Shown in pieces: positions 8,338 to 52,262 of a stretch of 64,000 nt of DNA; the first letter of the stretch is position 1, and the number at the start of each line of letters is the position of its first letter. This DNA comes from a phage. The translations under genes were made by a program, and so were the position numbers. Location of the stretch: the NCBI GenBank assembly GCA_033580375.1, contig GCA_033580375.1_4527.1; one strand, given 5' to 3'. Below the pieces are notes generated by a model that saw only the letters and a program-made list of their open reading frames with translations, ran no database searches and had not been told where the DNA came from.

Positions 8338-8377
8338 ATTTCTCTCATTTAATTAGTTTACCGTCCTTGGCATTATA

Positions 8378-22532: not shown

Positions 22533-23003
22533 TTAATCATGTTTCCACACCCCATCGGTATTTGACCAAAGTCGCTGATTATCTGATCCTCGCCATAGCT
22601 TTTTGGTCGGAAGATTTTTCTCATACTTCCCATCAATAATAACATCAACATATTTAAGCATTTCTAGCTGTTTAATATCTTCAAACTTATATCCTGTCCA
22701 CAACCAAATGCTTTTATTGGGATAAAGATTTTTAATAGTTTGAACCACAGAATGAATAACATCTCGGTTGTCAGGATAGAGAGGGTCTCCTCCAGATATA
22801 GTTAATCCTTCTATATAATCATTATTCAAACATTCAATTAATTGTTCTAGTGTCTCTCCGGTGAATGGAGCACCATTTCTAGCGTTCCATGTTGATTTAT
22901 TATAACACCCTTCACATTTATGCAAACACCCTGTAACGAAAAGAACGACCCTACAACCAGGGCCATTAACAAAATCGCAAGGATAAAATCTATCATAATT
23001 CAT
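22533..23003 (-). CDS. nrdG: Anaerobic ribonucleotide reductase activating enzyme NrdG (radical SAM), 156 aa
   Basis: CxxxCxxC cluster (GCLHKCEGC); ATGA overlap with nrdD stop. Confidence 0.9.
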   Translation of the reverse strand: MNYDRFYPCDFVNGPGCRVVLFVTGCLHKCEGCYNKSTWNARNGAPFTGETLEQLIECLNNDYIEGLTISGGDPLYPDNRDVIHSVVQTIKNLYPNKSIWLWTGYKFEDIKQLEMLKYVDVIIDGKYEKNLPTKKLWRGSDNQRLWSNTDGVWKHD

Positions 23004-24817
23004 TGGTGTTTAACCCTATGCATGATTTCTTTATTTTTACCGAGATTAAATCCGCGTTCGTTCGGATTTCCAAGATAACCGCATGTTCTTCTTATGGTGT
23101 TCATCTTTTTAGGATCAGTTTCTCCGCAAACTGAACAAACAAATCCATTTTCAGTAGGAGTCATTTCATGAGTACTTCCACATGTAAAACATTTATCTAC
23201 TGGCATATTAACACCAAAATAATCTAAATGTTGTGCAGCATAATCCCAGACAGCCTCAAGTCCCTTTAAATTGTTTTTCATATCAGGAAGTTCAACATAA
23301 GAAATGTGACCACCTGTCGCAATGAAATGATATGGCGCTTCACGAGAAATCTTTTCAAACGGAGTAATATTTTCTTCTACTGAAACGTGGAAACTATTAG
23401 TGTACCAGCCTTTATCGGTAACATCTTTTACACTTCCGTATTTTTCTGTATCAAGTTTACAGAAGCGATAACAAAGGTTTTCAGCAGGAGTCGAATATAA
23501 ACTAAAAGCAAATCCAGTTCTTTCAGTCCACTGTTTAAGATGAGCATTCATTTTAGTTAAAATTTCTTGCCCAATATCACGACCGACAAGAATATTCAAT
23601 TCGTGAATACCAATGTATCCCAAAGACACTGAACTTCTACCGTTTTTAAATAACTCAATTATGTCGTCATCTGGTTTAAGACGAACCCCGAATGCACCTT
23701 CTTGGTAAAGAATAGGAGCAACAGTCGCTTTAACTCCTTTTAAGGAACTAATTCTACACATCAAAGCTTCAAAACATAAATCCATTCGTTCATTGAATAA
23801 TTCAACAAATTTCTGTTCATTGAACTGTGTTCCAATATAAGAATCTAATGCGATACGAGGAAGATTCAGCGTTACAACACCGAGATTATTACGCCCATCA
23901 AGAATTTCATTACTGGTTGAATCTTTCCATACGCTCAAGAAACTACGGCAACCCATTGGAGAAACTGGAACTGAAGAACCGGTAATAACTTTGTTATTCT
24001 TAACCGAAATGATGTCAGGATACATTCTTTTGCTTGCACATTCTAACGCAAGCTGCTTAATATCATAGTTCGGGTCGTCTTTATAAAGATTAACACCTTC
24101 TTCAATGAACATAACAAGTTTAGGGAAAATAGGAGTTATTCCATCACGACCAAGACCTTTAATCCGATTTTTCAGAATTGCTTTCTGAATCATTCGTTCA
24201 GTCCAATCGGTTCCCGTACCAAATGTAATTGTTACAAAAGGCGTTTGTCCATTTGAACTAAAGAGAGTATTTACTTCATATTCATAAGCTTGGAATGCAT
24301 CGTATACGTCTTTTTCTGTTTTAGATTGAGCATAATTCAACGCATCAGCGATTTGCCATTTTTCTGCATCCTCAATATGTTTTGCATAGGTGCGTTTAAC
24401 ATAAGGAGAAAGTACTTTATCTACATTAGCAAAAGTCGTTCCGCCGTATTGATGTGAAGCAACTTGTGCAGTAATTTGTGCCATAATTGCAGTAGCAACA
24501 CCAATCGATTTAGGCGTTTCAATTTGAGCATTGCCTAATTTAAAACCATTCTCAAGCATCCCCTTTAAATCGACTAAACAGCAATTGGTAAACGGAAGAG
24601 CAGGAGAATAATCAATATCATGCATATGAATGATTCCGCTTTCATGCGCATTCATAATAAAAGACGGGACCATATTTTTGGCAATGTGCTTAGACACAAT
24701 ACCAGCCATAAGGTCCCGTTGAGTTGGAAAAACACGAGAATCTTTATTAGCATTCTCGTTCAAAAGATCTTTATTAGTTTTATAAATTAATCCTTCAATT
24801 TCTTTTTCAATTTTCAT
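23000..24817 (-). CDS. nrdD: Anaerobic ribonucleoside-triphosphate reductase NrdD, 605 aa
   Basis: C-terminal glycyl-radical motif RRTCGYLG and Zn-ribbon CxxC...CxxC; uninterrupted ORF (no intron). Confidence 0.95.
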   Translation of the reverse strand: MKIEKEIEGLIYKTNKDLLNENANKDSRVFPTQRDLMAGIVSKHIAKNMVPSFIMNAHESGIIHMHDIDYSPALPFTNCCLVDLKGMLENGFKLGNAQIETPKSIGVATAIMAQITAQVASHQYGGTTFANVDKVLSPYVKRTYAKHIEDAEKWQIADALNYAQSKTEKDVYDAFQAYEYEVNTLFSSNGQTPFVTITFGTGTDWTERMIQKAILKNRIKGLGRDGITPIFPKLVMFIEEGVNLYKDDPNYDIKQLALECASKRMYPDIISVKNNKVITGSSVPVSPMGCRSFLSVWKDSTSNEILDGRNNLGVVTLNLPRIALDSYIGTQFNEQKFVELFNERMDLCFEALMCRISSLKGVKATVAPILYQEGAFGVRLKPDDDIIELFKNGRSSVSLGYIGIHELNILVGRDIGQEILTKMNAHLKQWTERTGFAFSLYSTPAENLCYRFCKLDTEKYGSVKDVTDKGWYTNSFHVSVEENITPFEKISREAPYHFIATGGHISYVELPDMKNNLKGLEAVWDYAAQHLDYFGVNMPVDKCFTCGSTHEMTPTENGFVCSVCGETDPKKMNTIRRTCGYLGNPNERGFNLGKNKEIMHRVKHQ

Positions 24818-25982: not shown

Positions 25983-26242
25983 TTAAAATATTCTCGTAGT
26001 TGGTCAAAGCCACCGATCGAAGTTCCATCAGGAGCAAACACCTGAGGCATAGTCAATCCAACTTGTGATTCACGTCCAAGCTTAACCAGAAGCTCAGCAA
26101 TTTTCTCATCATCGAACACACCTTTTTCTGGCATCACGTTAATGAATTCGAACGGCTGTTTCTTAACAGTCAGCAATCGTTTCGCATTATCACAATAAAT
26201 GCATTTATGAATAGTAGAGTCATACCCGTACACTTTAAACAT
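25979..26242 (-). CDS. nrdC: Thioredoxin/glutaredoxin NrdC, 87 aa
   Basis: MFKVYGYDSTIHKCIYCDNAKRLL... matches T4 NrdC as recalled (CxxC); ORF track start 26260 adds 6 codons. Confidence 0.85.
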   Translation of the reverse strand: MFKVYGYDSTIHKCIYCDNAKRLLTVKKQPFEFINVMPEKGVFDDEKIAELLVKLGRESQVGLTMPQVFAPDGTSIGGFDQLREYFK

Positions 26243-26648
26243 TATTTTTCCTTTCGTCAATTAAGCAATTAACACCCAATACAATACATGTAATAAAACC
26301 TGTGATACCGATAGAAAACATCAACACTGTACCAAAGAACCAAATGATGTTATCTCGAGTATTTTGCTGAATATCCATCTCACGAATTTCTATAGCTATA
26401 GTATCACCTTTATTCAGAAGCGTATAAAACGATGGTGATACATGCCTGTCAAAAACTCGTCCTTGCTCATCTTTATAGACTGCAATAAATTCTAATTTAG
26501 AATATTTTCCTGTAGATTGGCCTGAGATTAATTCCACTACCTCCACAGGAATTACTTTAGTTTCCATATAAGTATTCTGGCTGTTCCAAATGAATGGAAT
26601 AACAGCAAAAACTAAAGCTGCGATAAAACAACGAAGGCTATATCTCAT
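26235..26648 (-). CDS. Hypothetical membrane protein, 137 aa
   Basis: Two hydrophobic segments; TAATG overlap with upstream stop. Confidence 0.55.
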   Translation of the reverse strand: MRYSLRCFIAALVFAVIPFIWNSQNTYMETKVIPVEVVELISGQSTGKYSKLEFIAVYKDEQGRVFDRHVSPSFYTLLNKGDTIAIEIREMDIQQNTRDNIIWFFGTVLMFSIGITGFITCIVLGVNCLIDERKNNV

Positions 26649-26953
26649 TATAATGTTCTCTCAAATTTGTGGAAGCATTTACGGCATTTCAATTTCAAGT
26701 TATCAGTGGTCCAGTTAACCAATTGGACTTGGATAGTTCCACATTCCGGACATGGATGTTTTGCTGCCGATTTGGCAGCATTTTCACGTCGTTCAACCAT
26801 TTTCATTATTTCGTTCCATGCCGGAGGAACGAACTCTTCTTCACCATGGATTTTATCTCGCTGAACAAATTCAATCTTTGAACTATCATCAATAAACTTA
26901 ACTAAGCCATGATTAGTGTTCATATCAATATCCTCTAGAAGACGTAGGTTCAT
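26648..26953 (-). CDS. Hypothetical Zn-ribbon protein, 101 aa
   Basis: CPECG...CRKC C-terminal pair. Confidence 0.55.
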   Translation of the reverse strand: MNLRLLEDIDMNTNHGLVKFIDDSSKIEFVQRDKIHGEEEFVPPAWNEIMKMVERRENAAKSAAKHPCPECGTIQVQLVNWTTDNLKLKCRKCFHKFERTL

Positions 26954-27894
26954 TATAACACCTCAATGGCATTTCGTAAACCGTCCGCTTTCGCATTCAG
27001 AGCTTTTAACGATTTAGTCTGTTCTTTAATCTGAGCTTCGACTTCTTTCAGACGAGATTTGAGATATTCACGTTCTTCGCTCAGGTTATCAACCTTTTCA
27101 ACTTTAGGTTCTTTAGGCTTATACTCGTTAGGATTCTTCAGTTTAATTCGAATTCGAGAACTGAATAACATTGAACCGTTATCTTCGGTTTCGTCGAACA
27201 TTTCAACAACATCCATAGTCTGTAACATCACGCAGAGTTTATAAGACAACGAACGAATAGTTTTGTTGTGCTTATTAATTTCTTCGGCTTTCATGGTACC
27301 GAGATTACGTGAGTAGTAATAAGGAACCTGGATATCAATTGATAATGATGCGTTACCATTACCAGTTGGTTTGAATACTGCAGTAACCCAATCTTTAACA
27401 TGAACTTTATTTGTACGACCATCACCGCCTGTGAATAATTTACGAGAATGTTTAAAAAGCATATTCACTTGTTTATTGAATTCACAAGCAAATTTATCAG
27501 CAAATTTAGTTTCAGGAATGGTAGATAACCAATCAGCCAAATGAGTCTTTTTAACATCATTAACAATAGTGAATTCAACCAAATCGGTTTTAGATGTCAC
27601 AGATTTAATAAAGCTCGGTTTCATAAAGTTTTTAATGTTATCACGAGCTACAGTAGAAGATAATAAACGAGAACGTTTGAACCATTGAAGCAGCGTCCCT
27701 AATGAATGAGAATACGCATTCTGAGTATCTTTACAGATATGATTTTCTTGGCCTGTGTATGTACCAAAATCTCGAAGAATACCACTTACTACATCTCGGT
27801 GTGGAACATCAAATCCTAGTGCACCAGAAGCGCGCTGAGCATGAACGTTAGCGATAAGACCGGCAAAGTATTCAATGTAATGTGAACGCGTCAT
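26953..27894 (-). CDS. Hypothetical protein with C-terminal coiled coil, 313 aa
   Basis: Intact ORF; heptad-rich tail LKSRLKEVEAQIKEQTKSLKALNAKADGLRNAIEVL. Confidence 0.65.
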   Translation of the reverse strand: MTRSHYIEYFAGLIANVHAQRASGALGFDVPHRDVVSGILRDFGTYTGQENHICKDTQNAYSHSLGTLLQWFKRSRLLSSTVARDNIKNFMKPSFIKSVTSKTDLVEFTIVNDVKKTHLADWLSTIPETKFADKFACEFNKQVNMLFKHSRKLFTGGDGRTNKVHVKDWVTAVFKPTGNGNASLSIDIQVPYYYSRNLGTMKAEEINKHNKTIRSLSYKLCVMLQTMDVVEMFDETEDNGSMLFSSRIRIKLKNPNEYKPKEPKVEKVDNLSEEREYLKSRLKEVEAQIKEQTKSLKALNAKADGLRNAIEVL

Positions 27895-27922
27895 AATATT
27901 TTCCTCTCGTTAAGATAGAAAG

Positions 27923-27952
27923 ATTATACTCCAACCATCCTTGGTTGTAAAC
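27923..27952 (-). promoter_or_regulatory. Early promoter (TTTACA-17-TATAAT) containing CAACCA/TGGTTG hairpin
   Basis: Minus strand tcaGTTTACAaccaaggatggttggagTATAATctt; 27-bp core identical to 28944-28970. Confidence 0.6.
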
Positions 27953-27956
27953 TGAT

Positions 27957-28916
27957 TTATGATTTTAATGCATTCATTGCGTTAAAAAGTTTAGAGTACT
28001 GCAACTGGAGATTGGTCACCACCTGTTGAGCATCACGAAGCTTAGCTTGTGCTTTATCAAGTTCAACGGATAGTTGGTCTACAGTGGCCTTGATTTGATT
28101 ATAATGGTAGTCTTCGGCAGGAAGAAGGTCATTAGAAACATTTAGTTTTACTGCAGACAGTTTGCACACATTTGGCAAACCTTTAAACATACCAGATTGT
28201 GCTGGAGAATATGCACCTAGAACCTCTGCATTACCGACTGGTGTTGCTGTAATATTGCCTTCAAACAATGCATTTTCCTTTTTAAGATTTTGATAGTATT
28301 CAGAGTCTTTGTGCCACCATGGTGCAGGAACCTTTTTACCAATAGATACACGAGCTTGGATAGCGATATGGCCCTTATTCTTGATAAGGTCGACAATATT
28401 AAGCTCACGAGAATAAATTGCTTTAATCTGGTGGATATTATCACCTAAAACTTCCAACGCTTGGTGGAATACACGAGCAACGTTATCATTCTTAGGTTTA
28501 TACGTAAGAGTGAACTCATTCTCACTGATAACCATGATTTCCAACTTATCGTAAGTATATTTCAAATGTTTCATGTTAATTGCTTGAGGACGAATACGAG
28601 AAGCAATGGCCATCAGATTGTTAAGGTTATTCCGGAACTGCTTAGCGAAATATTGTCCTTCACCGTCAATACAAAAATTACGAAGTTTCTGTTTGGCTAA
28701 TAAACGGCTGAACTCACCATTTTTAATGAACTCTTTAACGGGTGTGTTAGTAACGCATTCAAATTGAGTAAACTTACGAGAAGTAATCCCATAATACGAA
28801 CAGACTTCCTCAATCTCTTCAGGAGTCTTTACAGGCATACGGATAGGATTAGGTCCTGGAGTATATGCGTTCGAGGTAAATTCTTTGATAAGTTCTCTAC
28901 GTGTAATAAAAGACAT
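27957..28916 (-). CDS. Hypothetical protein with C-terminal coiled coil, 319 aa
   Basis: Intact ORF with own promoter. Confidence 0.65.
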   Translation of the reverse strand: MSFITRRELIKEFTSNAYTPGPNPIRMPVKTPEEIEEVCSYYGITSRKFTQFECVTNTPVKEFIKNGEFSRLLAKQKLRNFCIDGEGQYFAKQFRNNLNNLMAIASRIRPQAINMKHLKYTYDKLEIMVISENEFTLTYKPKNDNVARVFHQALEVLGDNIHQIKAIYSRELNIVDLIKNKGHIAIQARVSIGKKVPAPWWHKDSEYYQNLKKENALFEGNITATPVGNAEVLGAYSPAQSGMFKGLPNVCKLSAVKLNVSNDLLPAEDYHYNQIKATVDQLSVELDKAQAKLRDAQQVVTNLQLQYSKLFNAMNALKS

Positions 28917-28942
28917 TTTATATTCCTCATGTTGAAAAAATT

Positions 28943-28971
28943 ATTATACTCCAACCATCCTTGGTTGTACA
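28943..28971 (-). promoter_or_regulatory. Early promoter (TGTACA-17-TATAAT) with the same 27-bp hairpin core
   Basis: ttatactccaaccatccttggttgta repeated exactly. Confidence 0.55.
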
Positions 28972-29967
28972 TCATTCCTTAAGAAGTTTTACTACTTGAA
29001 TAAGATTAGCTCGTTCTGTTTTATTTTTACCGTTTAAGCCTGCTAATCGTGAGATTTCATCGTCAGTCTGTTGAATAGTTACATTAAGTTCGTTAATCAA
29101 AGCTTCAAAGTATTTGATTTGCTCAGCATGTTTTGATTCAAATTTCTGAACCGGAATAACGTCTTGGTTCAGTTCATCAATAAGGTCTTTAAGAGCATCT
29201 TCTTGGTTGATATCGTATTCAACTTCTTTTATTTCTTCAACGAGCTCGTCTTTATATCTAACGTCTTTTAGTCCTGGTGCTGGTCCTGAAATCTCTTCTT
29301 TAAGAGTACAAACATACCCAATACGGTATCCAATGCCGTCTCGCTTGATATCAACTTCGTCGATAAATCCACAATGTTTAAGTCCAGAGCCGATTATGTC
29401 AAAATATCCTTGACGTCGTCCTTCAAACGTTACACGAACTACTAAGACAGTTTTGCCACCAACCTTTTGAAGCTCACATTTATAAAAGTCTGTTGAACCT
29501 GAATAACGTGGATGAGTTTTAAAGTTCATCTGACGATCTAGGCCCATTTGTAAACGTGCTGTTACAGCCATAAAACGTGTTTGGTTCTCGTTAAGATGAG
29601 CAACGATCCATTTCAAAGGCATTTTACACTGTTCACGACCGAACAAGTCGGTATGTCCTAGATTACGCAGGATGTTGTTAGAGTTAATCATCGACAGAAC
29701 GTTAAGTTTATTCAGCGCGCTGAAGATTCCATCAGCCATTGATTTTCCATAACCTTTACACGCTTTAATAAGTGCTCGCGGCAGATTAGTATAGATTTCG
29801 GACGGCATATGAAAATCAAATTTACTAGTCAGTAATTGATGAACCTGGATAGCAATTTGCTCATAATTAAGTGCTCTGCGATCGTTATGGTCTTTAAACC
29901 ACACTTTAATCTGTGAAGCACATAAACCGTTAATTTCATGTTTTACCGCATCAGATGTAATGCTCAT
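28972..29967 (-). CDS. Hypothetical protein with C-terminal coiled coil, 331 aa
   Basis: Intact ORF. Confidence 0.65.
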   Translation of the reverse strand: MSITSDAVKHEINGLCASQIKVWFKDHNDRRALNYEQIAIQVHQLLTSKFDFHMPSEIYTNLPRALIKACKGYGKSMADGIFSALNKLNVLSMINSNNILRNLGHTDLFGREQCKMPLKWIVAHLNENQTRFMAVTARLQMGLDRQMNFKTHPRYSGSTDFYKCELQKVGGKTVLVVRVTFEGRRQGYFDIIGSGLKHCGFIDEVDIKRDGIGYRIGYVCTLKEEISGPAPGLKDVRYKDELVEEIKEVEYDINQEDALKDLIDELNQDVIPVQKFESKHAEQIKYFEALINELNVTIQQTDDEISRLAGLNGKNKTERANLIQVVKLLKE

Positions 29968-30029
29968 AACTATTTCCTCAGATTGAATTGGAACTCAAAA
30001 CCATTATAACCCGTCCTTGGGTAAAGCGT

Positions 30030-30557: not shown

Positions 30558-30583
30558 GTTTTACCTCCAGTAGTTGATAGGTC

Positions 30584-30613
30584 TATAATAACATAACCAT
30601 AGACCTTGTAAAC
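30584..30613 (-). promoter_or_regulatory. Early promoter (GTTTACA-17-TATTAT) with AGGTCTAT/ATAGACCT inverted repeat
   Basis: Read directly. Confidence 0.5.
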
Positions 30614-30615
30614 AA

Positions 30616-30891
30616 CTAAAAGAAACTTTTTTCGGTATTTTTTCCACTGAACCAAACAGACTTCGGGATTTTTTGTAATTTTTCAGATTTAAGTTTCTCT
30701 TCCTGTTCTTTCTTATACGCATCCTTGTCGTACTGGAGCATCTCTATGGCATTCTTTTGCAAACGATCTAAGGTAATTAAGGCTTTAGTTTTTCCTTTCA
30801 AGGAAGAGTCCTGGCGAACCTCCTCGCTATATTGTTCTGTTGCACTAATCATACGATGGGCATATAATTCACGACTGGCTTGGATATTCAT
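30616..30891 (-). CDS. Hypothetical protein, 91 aa
   Basis: ORF. Confidence 0.5.
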   Translation of the reverse strand: MNIQASRELYAHRMISATEQYSEEVRQDSSLKGKTKALITLDRLQKNAIEMLQYDKDAYKKEQEEKLKSEKLQKIPKSVWFSGKNTEKSFF

Positions 30892-31891: not shown

Positions 31892-31918
31892 ATTTACTCA
31901 TTTCGTTTCGATAGGTCT

Positions 31919-31947
31919 ATAATAACATGTTTAAAGCAAAAGTAAAC
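31919..31947 (-). promoter_or_regulatory. Early promoter (GTTTAC-17-TATTAT)
   Basis: gataggtctataataacat...gtaaac pattern. Confidence 0.5.
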
Positions 31948-31949
31948 AA

Positions 31950-32168
31950 TTATTTGCGACGAGATTTTTTGGTAAGAGGTTGAAAGAACACTGCTTTACC
32001 AGCAGGAGTCAAAGTGACTCGTAATGCATTACCGATTCCTAAGGATGCTTTAACTAGACCTTTAGCTTTCAGTTCACCGAATGCTTGACGTTGGTCTGCA
32101 TCACGAGTGTTAACCATAAGACCTTTATCACCAGCTTCACGAATCATTTCTAACATTTTGGTTTTCAT
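31950..32168 (-). CDS. Hypothetical small protein, 72 aa (possible winged-helix)
   Basis: ORF. Confidence 0.5.
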   Translation of the reverse strand: MKTKMLEMIREAGDKGLMVNTRDADQRQAFGELKAKGLVKASLGIGNALRVTLTPAGKAVFFQPLTKKSRRK

Positions 32169-32198
32169 TTTGTTTTCTCCTCTTGTTTTGATAGGTCT

Positions 32199-32226
32199 AT
32201 AATAACATATCCTAAAAGCATGTACA
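32199..32226 (-). promoter_or_regulatory. Early promoter (TGTACA-16-TATTAT)
   Basis: gataggtctataataacat...tgtaca. Confidence 0.45.
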
Positions 32227-32256
32227 CTACTTTTTAAAAATATTTTGACCCCCTAA

Positions 32257-51917: not shown

Positions 51918-52262
51918 TTATTTTGGCATATCATCAATTTGCTCTCTACGCCGACGCCATAGATTAATCGCTTCATAGGCACATTCTGCGTTTGGTATAT
52001 GACGGCAATAATATAATGATTCACGTTTCTGAAACCGATGTTGCAATGGGATTTCGTTTAAAAGGTCTTTACGATCAAAGTATTCAAAACTAGTTAACCC
52101 TGAACGGTTTTTAATGAACTTCCAATGACCGAATTCATTTTGAACATAGATGTAATCAGCGTGTTGATAAAGTGAATTAATCAATCGGTCTGAAATAACT
52201 GTATCATGTTCGTTAAAATAAAACGTTAAATCATGAACTACTAAATAGACATTACCTTTCAT
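51918..52262 (-). CDS. Hypothetical protein, about 114 aa, embedded in the tRNA region
   Basis: ATG 52260-52262 with GAGGAAA SD; ORF track start 52310 would overlap tRNA-Arg. Confidence 0.5.
   Translation of the reverse strand: MKGNVYLVVHDLTFYFNEHDTVISDRLINSLYQHADYIYVQNEFGHWKFIKNRSGLTSFEYFDRKDLLNEIPLQHRFQKRESLYYCRHIPNAECAYEAINLWRRRREQIDDMPK

Follow-up and report, generated by a model that had tools for sequence, protein, structure and literature searches.

Three consecutive genes in a 64,000-nucleotide stretch of phage DNA (contig GCA_033580375.1_4527.1; hereafter the window) encode proteins of 313, 319 and 331 residues, designated here wA, wB and wC. By profile comparison the three genes are tandem, diverged paralogs of a single accessory family of T4-like phages, the NrdC.3/4/5/6 superfamily. 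Members of the superfamily consist of a body of about 250-270 residues, predicted to be made up of helices and sheets, and a C-terminal coiled-coil helix, which is the better conserved of the two and about 45-55 residues long; the bodies, as judged by sequence, have diverged almost past pairwise recognition. The array is read, with moderate confidence, as a set of tandem paralogs encoding early candidate anti-defence binders, each with a tail that would self-associate and a fast-diverging body that would serve in recognition.

The window phage is identified by sequence identity as an RB69-like T-even phage of the genus Mosigvirus. The region of about 4 kb around the three open reading frames (ORFs) is 96-97% identical to that of many RB69-like coliphages, including vB_EcoM_SA79RD, which is classified as Straboviridae, Tevenvirinae, Mosigvirus. 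An initial annotation, made from the sequence of the window, had noted three consecutive ORFs of 313-331 residues, and these are present exactly as described, all on the minus strand (Table 1). The ratio of non-synonymous to synonymous substitution (dN/dS) for the three genes among four Mosigvirus genomes is 0.03-0.19, similar to that of nrdC.8. The ORFs are real coding genes under purifying selection.

The same annotation held that T4 has nothing equivalent after nrdC. This is incorrect, as T4 carries nrdC.3 (308 aa), nrdC.4 (333 aa), nrdC.5 (340 aa) and nrdC.6 (275 aa) in tandem at that place. By BLASTP, wA is 56% identical to T4 NrdC.3 over its full length (313 aa, E 7e-120), and its body also matches T4 NrdC.4 (E 4e-5); it matches phrog_1435 (E 2e-102), the PHROG to which T4 NrdC.4 also belongs. 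With T4 NrdC.5, wB shares 23% identity over 330 aa (E 1e-9). Both proteins are full-length matches to Pfam PF23882 (DUF7235), wB at 398 bits (cut-off 30; E 4e-119; residues 15-318 on model positions 1-307) and T4 NrdC.5 at 420.6 bits (E 5e-126). The third protein, wC, is 29% identical to T4 NrdC.6 (E 5e-18), matches the 295-aa form of NrdC.6 found in Tequatrovirus with E 1e-32, and matches phrog_2257 over residues 1-331 (E 4e-127). No model in the Pfam copy searched matched wA or wC; homologs of the two carry the labels PF26897 and PF26899, respectively, both taken solely from the precomputed annotation of the source database. Searches of PDB sequences with wA, wB, wC and T4 NrdC.5 as queries gave no match. 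In many GenBank records these proteins, like NrdC.10 and NrdC.11, bear the name 'thioredoxin'. A thioredoxin domain was not detectable in the proteins so labelled, and the label appears to have been carried over from the nrdC locus name.

Table 1. Positions in the window of the three genes, their tails and promoters, and other features mentioned in the text
Feature	Position	Strand	Description
wA, 313-aa protein	26953-27894	minus	Ortholog of T4 NrdC.3, subgroup NrdC.3/NrdC.4
wB, 319-aa protein	27957-28916	minus	Ortholog of T4 NrdC.5, Pfam DUF7235
wC, 331-aa protein	28972-29967	minus	Homolog of T4-type NrdC.6
wA heptad tail	26956-27105	minus	Residues about 264-313; ends in family motif GLRNAIEVL
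wB heptad tail	27960-28121	minus	Residues about 266-319; ends in KLFNAMNALKS
wC tail	28975-29151	minus	Residues about 273-331; heptad helix, Gly/Asn break, short terminal helix
Putative early-type promoter of nrdC.3-like gene (wA)	27923-27951	minus	TTTACA-17-TATAAT, 11/12 consensus matches
Putative early-type promoter of nrdC.5-like gene (wB)	28943-28971	minus	TGTACA-17-TATAAT, 10/12 consensus matches
Putative middle-type (MotA-box-like) promoter of nrdC.6-like gene (wC)	30003-30027	minus	GCTTTACCCAAGGACGGGTTATAAT, GCTTTA-N12-TATAAT
Exact repeat, family D3	27914-27949; 28934-28969		Found by repeat search
Promoter spacer stem-loops	27935-27944; 28955-28964; 30011-30020	minus	AGGA loop
Fourth exact spacer copy	8361-8370		Downstream of -10 element
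Second repeated promoter family	30574-30632; 31908-31966; 32188-32246		Upstream of nrdC.8, nrdC.10 and 72-aa genes
nrdC.7 homolog	26235-26648	minus	Predicted membrane protein; adjoins nrdC
nrdD	23000-24817	minus	Single unbroken 605-aa ORF

The bodies of the three proteins had been described as unrelated, and pairwise BLASTP among the bodies of wA, wB and wC indeed gives nothing significant. Profile comparison contradicts the description. The conserved NrdC.10 served as anchor for collecting loci on 47 viral contigs; ORFs from these and from several annotated phage loci were clustered into families, and the merged groups were compared with hhalign, either at full length or as bodies only, i.e. 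with the last 55 residues removed. Within the first group, T4 NrdC.3 aligns with T4 NrdC.4 over 271 residues, and the profile hidden Markov models (HMMs) of the two match each other's bodies reciprocally (E 1e-6 to 1e-14). Searched against 1.84 billion representative proteins, the NrdC.3 profile matched only five, and one of these is an NrdC.4-type protein (E 7e-6, residues 3-243). Between groups, the body-only comparison of NrdC.3/4 with the NrdC.5 group scores 96.8% (E 2.6e-10, 199 collinear columns) and that of the NrdC.5 with the NrdC.6 group 94.3% (E 1e-7), the latter two groups being bridged by subfamilies from other T4-like genera. Seven unrelated control families from the same loci score 1% or less in the body-only comparison. 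At full length the scores are 97.9% (NrdC.3/4 and NrdC.5), 97.9% (NrdC.5 and NrdC.6) and 94.5% (NrdC.3/4 and NrdC.6), and in all three alignments the collinearity extends from the N-terminal region through the final residue. Independent support comes from PHROGs, where NrdC.3 and NrdC.4 belong to a single family and the other groups give cross-hits.

At the level of individual segments, body motifs common to the proteins can be recognised by eye: wA 71-91 WFKRSRLLSSTVARDNIKNFM aligns with wB 62-82 EFIKNGEFSRLLAKQKLRNFC, and wA 131-155, a long helix of the type F..(E/Q)F(N/R).N...L...(S/A)R, aligns with wB 89-113 and wC 118-144. The order of elements is alike in the low-confidence AlphaFold2 (AF2) models of wA and wB: helix, long helix, three strands, helix, two strands, linker and tail helix. 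The alignments behind the models were shallow, as homolog searches gave close relatives only (35, 19 and 4 for the three proteins), and a Foldseek search of BFVD with the wA model returned only its own ortholog, with a template modelling (TM) score of 0.33. In a MAFFT alignment the body motifs of the three window families were placed out of register, and it was not used for prediction. The tails are alike by common descent of the proteins as a whole, which are diverged paralogs, and not because unrelated bodies acquired similar tails.

The tails themselves had been called similar and coiled-coil. The coiled-coil part of this is clear for wA and wB and weaker for wC. Single helices at wA 272-312 (predicted local distance difference test, pLDDT, 75-88) and wB 266-318 (pLDDT 67-82) are the sole confident parts of their AF2 models. 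With a simple a/d score, in which the best 35-residue window was compared with 200 shuffles, the best heptad window of each lies in the tail (wA, z 4.3, reached by 0/200 shuffles; wB, z 3.0, reached by 1/200). In wC the best window, at 276-310, has only z 1.1 and was reached by 31/200 shuffles; the tail helix is interrupted by LAGLNGKNKT and followed by a short terminal helix, whose end ERANLIQVVKLLKE aligns with the terminal motif of the family.

Similarity of the tails on formal alignment depends on the method. Among the window proteins BLASTP gives E values of 2.7 and 3.6 for two pairs and no tail alignment for the third, and the tail pairs are identical at 4-8 of 45 positions (9-18%); had profiles not been used, the pairwise result would have led to the tail similarity being rejected. 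With family profiles it is detectable. Tail-only hhalign scores 97% for the wB family against T4-type NrdC.5, 93.9% (E 1.5e-7) for the NrdC.5 against the NrdC.6 group, 62.7% for NrdC.3/4 against the NrdC.5 group, and 4% for NrdC.3/4 against the NrdC.6 group. The product of the next gene, NrdC.8, a helical charged protein with a helical C-terminus, scores less than 4% as a control and was rejected as a member of the family.

When the last 42 residues of 11 subfamilies are aligned on the final Leu, one continuous heptad register fits the tails of all of them. Hydrophobic residues make up 75% of a positions and 87% of d positions, vs 18-33% elsewhere, and the d positions have the lowest entropy and are the most conserved of the tail alignment. 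A terminal motif, Q-R-x-K-L-x-x-A-h-x-x-L, recurs in the 11 subfamilies and is followed by 0-7 residues up to the C-terminus (three or fewer in all but one subfamily), usually K. The tails are also better conserved than the bodies between the window phage and T4 (71 vs 54% identity in NrdC.3, 44 vs 23% in NrdC.5, and 58 vs 27% in NrdC.6), while the flanking NrdC.8, NrdC.10 and NrdC.11 are 75-85% identical in both parts. The shared signal of the tails, as read from these alignments, is the structural core of a coiled coil (hydrophobic a/d positions) with the terminal motif, and not a common surface. Of the two suggestions made initially, a shared mode of oligomerisation through the tails is plausible; a common external partner docking onto them is not favoured, because the solvent-facing heptad positions are variable and the paralog tails are only 9-18% identical.

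Copy number at this position varies among T4-like phages. Most of the T4-like genera sampled have one copy (Serratia X20, Yersinia fHe-Yen9-01, Klebsiella and others), Mosigvirus and Dhakavirus have three tandem copies in the order NrdC.6, NrdC.5 and NrdC.3/4 type, Tequatrovirus has four, and a member is absent from 11 of the sampled loci. In the coliphage T-even lineage the family has grown by tandem duplication from a single gene to three or four. Individual copies are also lost or damaged. In phage vB_EcoM_ACG-C40 a natural deletion runs from nrdC.5 to nrdC.3 (locus L004, 6721-7129); it has removed nrdC.4 altogether and left a 71-aa N-terminal fragment of NrdC.5 and an unannotated remnant of the NrdC.3 tail (84% identity to that of the window). 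A viable phage can thus do without at least three of the paralogs. In one Tequatrovirus contig nrdC.4 is split into ORFs of 193 and 158 aa (L025, 14394-15426), and in one Dhakavirus-type contig NrdC.4 lacks most of the coiled coil, ending in ...KSKLPEVVADRLEQALELLK (L013, 13738-14709). The reference nrdC.6 of T4 (275 aa) ends frameshifted, in ...EELIFLFNNMMMKFSDYLD and a stop (NC_000866 about 51999-52159, minus strand; L003, 4000-4160), and the complete family tail ISIQQYDDEIFRLSGLSSKAKSEREKLIKIVDLLKS, again followed by a stop, lies intact in the next frame. Other Tequatroviruses have an in-frame NrdC.6 of 295 aa, and the T4 frameshift is either a recent mutation or a sequencing error in the reference.

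Immediately upstream of the single-copy family gene in T4-like genera lies a gene for a conserved protein of 256-284 aa, phrog_4750, e.g. at L006 12226-12999, L008 12110-12898 and L007 12648-13439, with 18 further loci. In Tegunavirus it lies within about 1.5 kb of the superfamily gene, and it is absent from T4, Mosigvirus and Dhakavirus. The protein (the k2 family of the clustering) has the C-terminal motif GSLPK...YRG.IEF.ATF...THSFFKRPS; no Pfam domain was found in it and no similarity to the superfamily.

Each of the three window genes has, by sequence match, its own promoter, two of early type and one of middle type. The initial annotation had placed an exact-repeat promoter before two of the genes, and this is confirmed: a 27-nucleotide identical core TACAACCAAGGATGGTTGGAGTATAAT lies upstream of wA and wB, within the repeat family D3. 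The site equivalent to the wA promoter is annotated in SA79RD as a promoter similar to TTGACA(N15-17)TATAAT, and that equivalent to the wC promoter as a T4 (MotA-type) middle promoter. The wC promoter lies downstream of nrdC.8 and corresponds in position to that of T4 nrdC.7: the site is conserved, but the gene it drives is nrdC.7 in T4 and the nrdC.6-like gene in the window. An unusual spacer, CCAAGGA(T/C)GG, is common to the promoters of the window copies and of T4 nrdC.3, nrdC.4 and nrdC.7, which fits duplication of promoter-plus-gene units.

The spacer contains a small stem-loop with an AGGA loop in the three window promoters and in those of T4 nrdC.3, nrdC.4 and nrdC.7. The stems vary yet remain complementary (AACCA/TGGTT, CCACA/TGTGG, AGCCA/TGGCT and TACCA/TGGTA). 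The stem-loop may be no more than a consequence of the TGG in the extended -10 element; alternatively, the duplicated promoter units may have conserved it as an element of their own. A fourth exact copy of the spacer lies downstream of a -10 element, so that its setting differs. A second repeated promoter family, with the core TTGATAGGTCTATAATAACAT on the plus strand (ATGTTATTATAGACCTATCAA on the minus strand), lies upstream of neighbouring genes (Table 1), and its conservation extends downstream of the -10 element.

The only evidence on function that was found comes from T4. A T4 clone with large deletions failed to plate on ECOR17, or on MG1655 carrying dsr1 of ECOR17; Dsr1 is a SIR2-domain defence, and T4 nrdC.5, there called an early gene, restored plating of the deletion clone when expressed from a plasmid (PMC9391042). 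Literature searches found no experiment on the Mosigvirus proteins and no later paper on nrdC.5 against Dsr1, and the main text of a preprint on an accessory-gene screen (10.1101/2023.04.06.535777) does not mention these genes. In the alignment of the NrdC.5/NrdC.6 side the conserved columns are hydrophobic or structural only, with no conserved catalytic-type residue, and Pfam searches detected no enzyme domain in the three proteins. Conservation of structural positions only argues for binders rather than enzymes. The genes further have the traits of accessory genes, i.e. early promoter matches, dispensability, variable presence, a copy number of one to four, and divergence faster than that of their neighbours.

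The proteins would accordingly be made early in infection and act as stoichiometric, non-enzymatic binders. The tail would bring about self-association as dimers or higher oligomers, and the fast-evolving body would bind and neutralise a host immune protein. The NrdC.5 type may target Dsr1 or a relative, and the other copies other targets or variants, so that the array as a whole would broaden the host range of the phage. A wider proposal, put forward only tentatively and judged rather improbable, is that the superfamily comprises lineage-wide, coiled-coil-oligomerised immune antagonists not recognised before, in which the tail gives avidity against oligomeric defences, the hypervariable body determines the target, and each tandem copy acts against a different defence or a different Dsr1/SIR2 variant. 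NrdC.3, NrdC.4 and NrdC.6 would then be new anti-defence proteins.

Several points weigh against this interpretation, at the levels of both ancestry and function. The body-only comparison of NrdC.3/4 with the NrdC.6 group is weak (68.8%), and the link between these two groups rests on transitivity and the full-length comparison. The AF2 models are unreliable for the bodies (pLDDT 50.7 for wA and 41.5 for wB). Tail HMMs built with one family left out find that family at marginal E values (0.003-0.5), and oligomerisation through the tails is deduced from sequence alone. No positive selection is seen in dN/dS within Mosigvirus. The nrdC.5 result is a complementation, which shows neither mechanism nor physical binding (PMC9391042); wB is only 23% identical to the T4 NrdC.5 that was tested, so its target may differ.

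Other explanations can be set against tandem paralogs that act as early anti-defence binders. Those that invoke a mixed complex, a role outside immunity or a merely compositional tail are each less well supported. In the first, the paralogs would hetero-oligomerise through their tails and act as one complex, instead of as independent homo-oligomers that each have a target. The a/d core and terminal motif common to all paralogs would allow this, and the genes are adjacent, with an identical early promoter before two of them, so that the proteins would be made together. In most T4-like genera sampled, however, this tail occurs on a lone copy, so a paralog partner cannot have been needed for its original role, and natural phages have lost or truncated single copies. 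Moreover, nrdC.5 alone complemented the Dsr1 phenotype, although other paralogs may have remained in that phage (PMC9391042). A single mixed complex is considered unlikely.

A similarly low probability is given to a housekeeping or host-takeover role unrelated to immunity, e.g. in nucleotide metabolism or transcription, with the Dsr1 effect being indirect. The genes sit among nrd genes, the name of the nrdC locus might hint at such a role, and the effect of nrdC.5 on Dsr1 has no known mechanism. The many 'thioredoxin' names, which might seem to point the same way, appear to come from the neighbouring nrdC, and neither an enzyme domain nor conserved catalytic-type residues were detected to support them. 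The phage can dispense with these genes, their number of copies varies, and they diverge far faster than their neighbours, as is typical of accessory genes.

That the tail similarity is nothing but the generic composition of amphipathic helices, carrying no specific signal, is improbable. The low identity of the window tails (4-8/45), pairwise BLASTP E values above 1 and the marginal E values of the leave-one-family-out HMMs agree with it. In the same leave-one-family-out test, however, the left-out tails come first or nearly first among 4928 six-frame segments; tail-only hhalign reaches 93.9% (NrdC.5 and NrdC.6 groups) and 97% (wB family and T4 NrdC.5), the terminal motif is position-specific near the C-terminus in 11 subfamilies, and the helical NrdC.8 control fails to match. 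Least probable are three unrelated proteins whose similar tails, arisen by convergence or module shuffling, dock onto one partner: the absence of a significant pairwise body match in BLASTP and the placement in three separate families by Pfam and PHROGs agree with it, but the body-only profile matches are significant and collinear with clean controls, the NrdC.3 profile finds NrdC.4 among 1.84 billion proteins, subfamilies from other genera bridge the NrdC.5 and NrdC.6 groups, and the variable surface positions of the tails argue against a shared docking surface.

The three genes are orthologs of long-annotated T4 ORFs, one of them with a published anti-Dsr1 phenotype, and are ordinary in themselves. 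What is added is that the four T4 ORFs, and the single-copy genes at the same position elsewhere, form one superfamily with a diverging body and a conserved coiled-coil tail. No paper found by the literature searches states this unification, and in both Pfam and PHROGs the groups remain separate. As an insight it is modest but of use, and the array is an ordinary but informative gene-family expansion. If the anti-defence reading is true, NrdC.3, NrdC.4 and NrdC.6 become concrete candidate inhibitors of other defence systems, the boundary between body and tail is a natural domain boundary usable for swaps, and the array is a clear case of a counter-defence gene diversifying by tandem duplication.

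In the surrounding region of the window the order on the minus strand is nrdD, gene 49, nrdC, an nrdC.7-like gene, an nrdC.2-like gene, the three ORFs, and homologs of nrdC.8, nrdC.9, nrdC.10 and nrdC.11. Neither nrdC.1 nor nrdC.4 is detectable in the window phage. The nrdD gene of T4 is split by a group I intron with I-TevII, unlike that of the window phage, which is unbroken.

Compared with T4, the window phage keeps the gene order NrdC.6, NrdC.5, NrdC.3/4 but has no NrdC.4 copy. Its NrdC.6 is longer than the T4 type (331 aa vs 295 or 275), and its nrdC.7 adjoins nrdC instead of lying between nrdC.6 and nrdC.8 (L003, 4902-5303, in T4). Outside the T-even phages, the protein DSAD1 of phage SPbeta binds and blocks the SIR2 defence DSR2. 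The likeness to DSAD1 is a functional analogy only, that of a non-enzymatic phage protein acting against a SIR2-domain NADase, and both the phage lineage and the host differ from those of the window. Among the closest comparisons is T4 NrdC.5 (Srikant, Guegler and Laub 2022, eLife 11:e79549), with which wB shares the Pfam model, the position in the array and the tail motif. The wB promoter is of early type by sequence, and T4 nrdC.5 has been called an early gene (PMC9391042). Identity between the two proteins is, however, only 23% overall, with 44% in the tail, and anti-Dsr1 activity is known for the T4 version only. Other tandem, fast-diverging accessory arrays of T-even phages, e.g. the internal proteins and the dmd-tifA-adfA 'anti-TA island' (PMC9391042), are likewise early, dispensable, variable between close relatives in the number and content of their genes, and linked to host range. 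Those arrays are made up of unrelated small genes, whereas the array in the window is one paralog family with a conserved coiled-coil tail.

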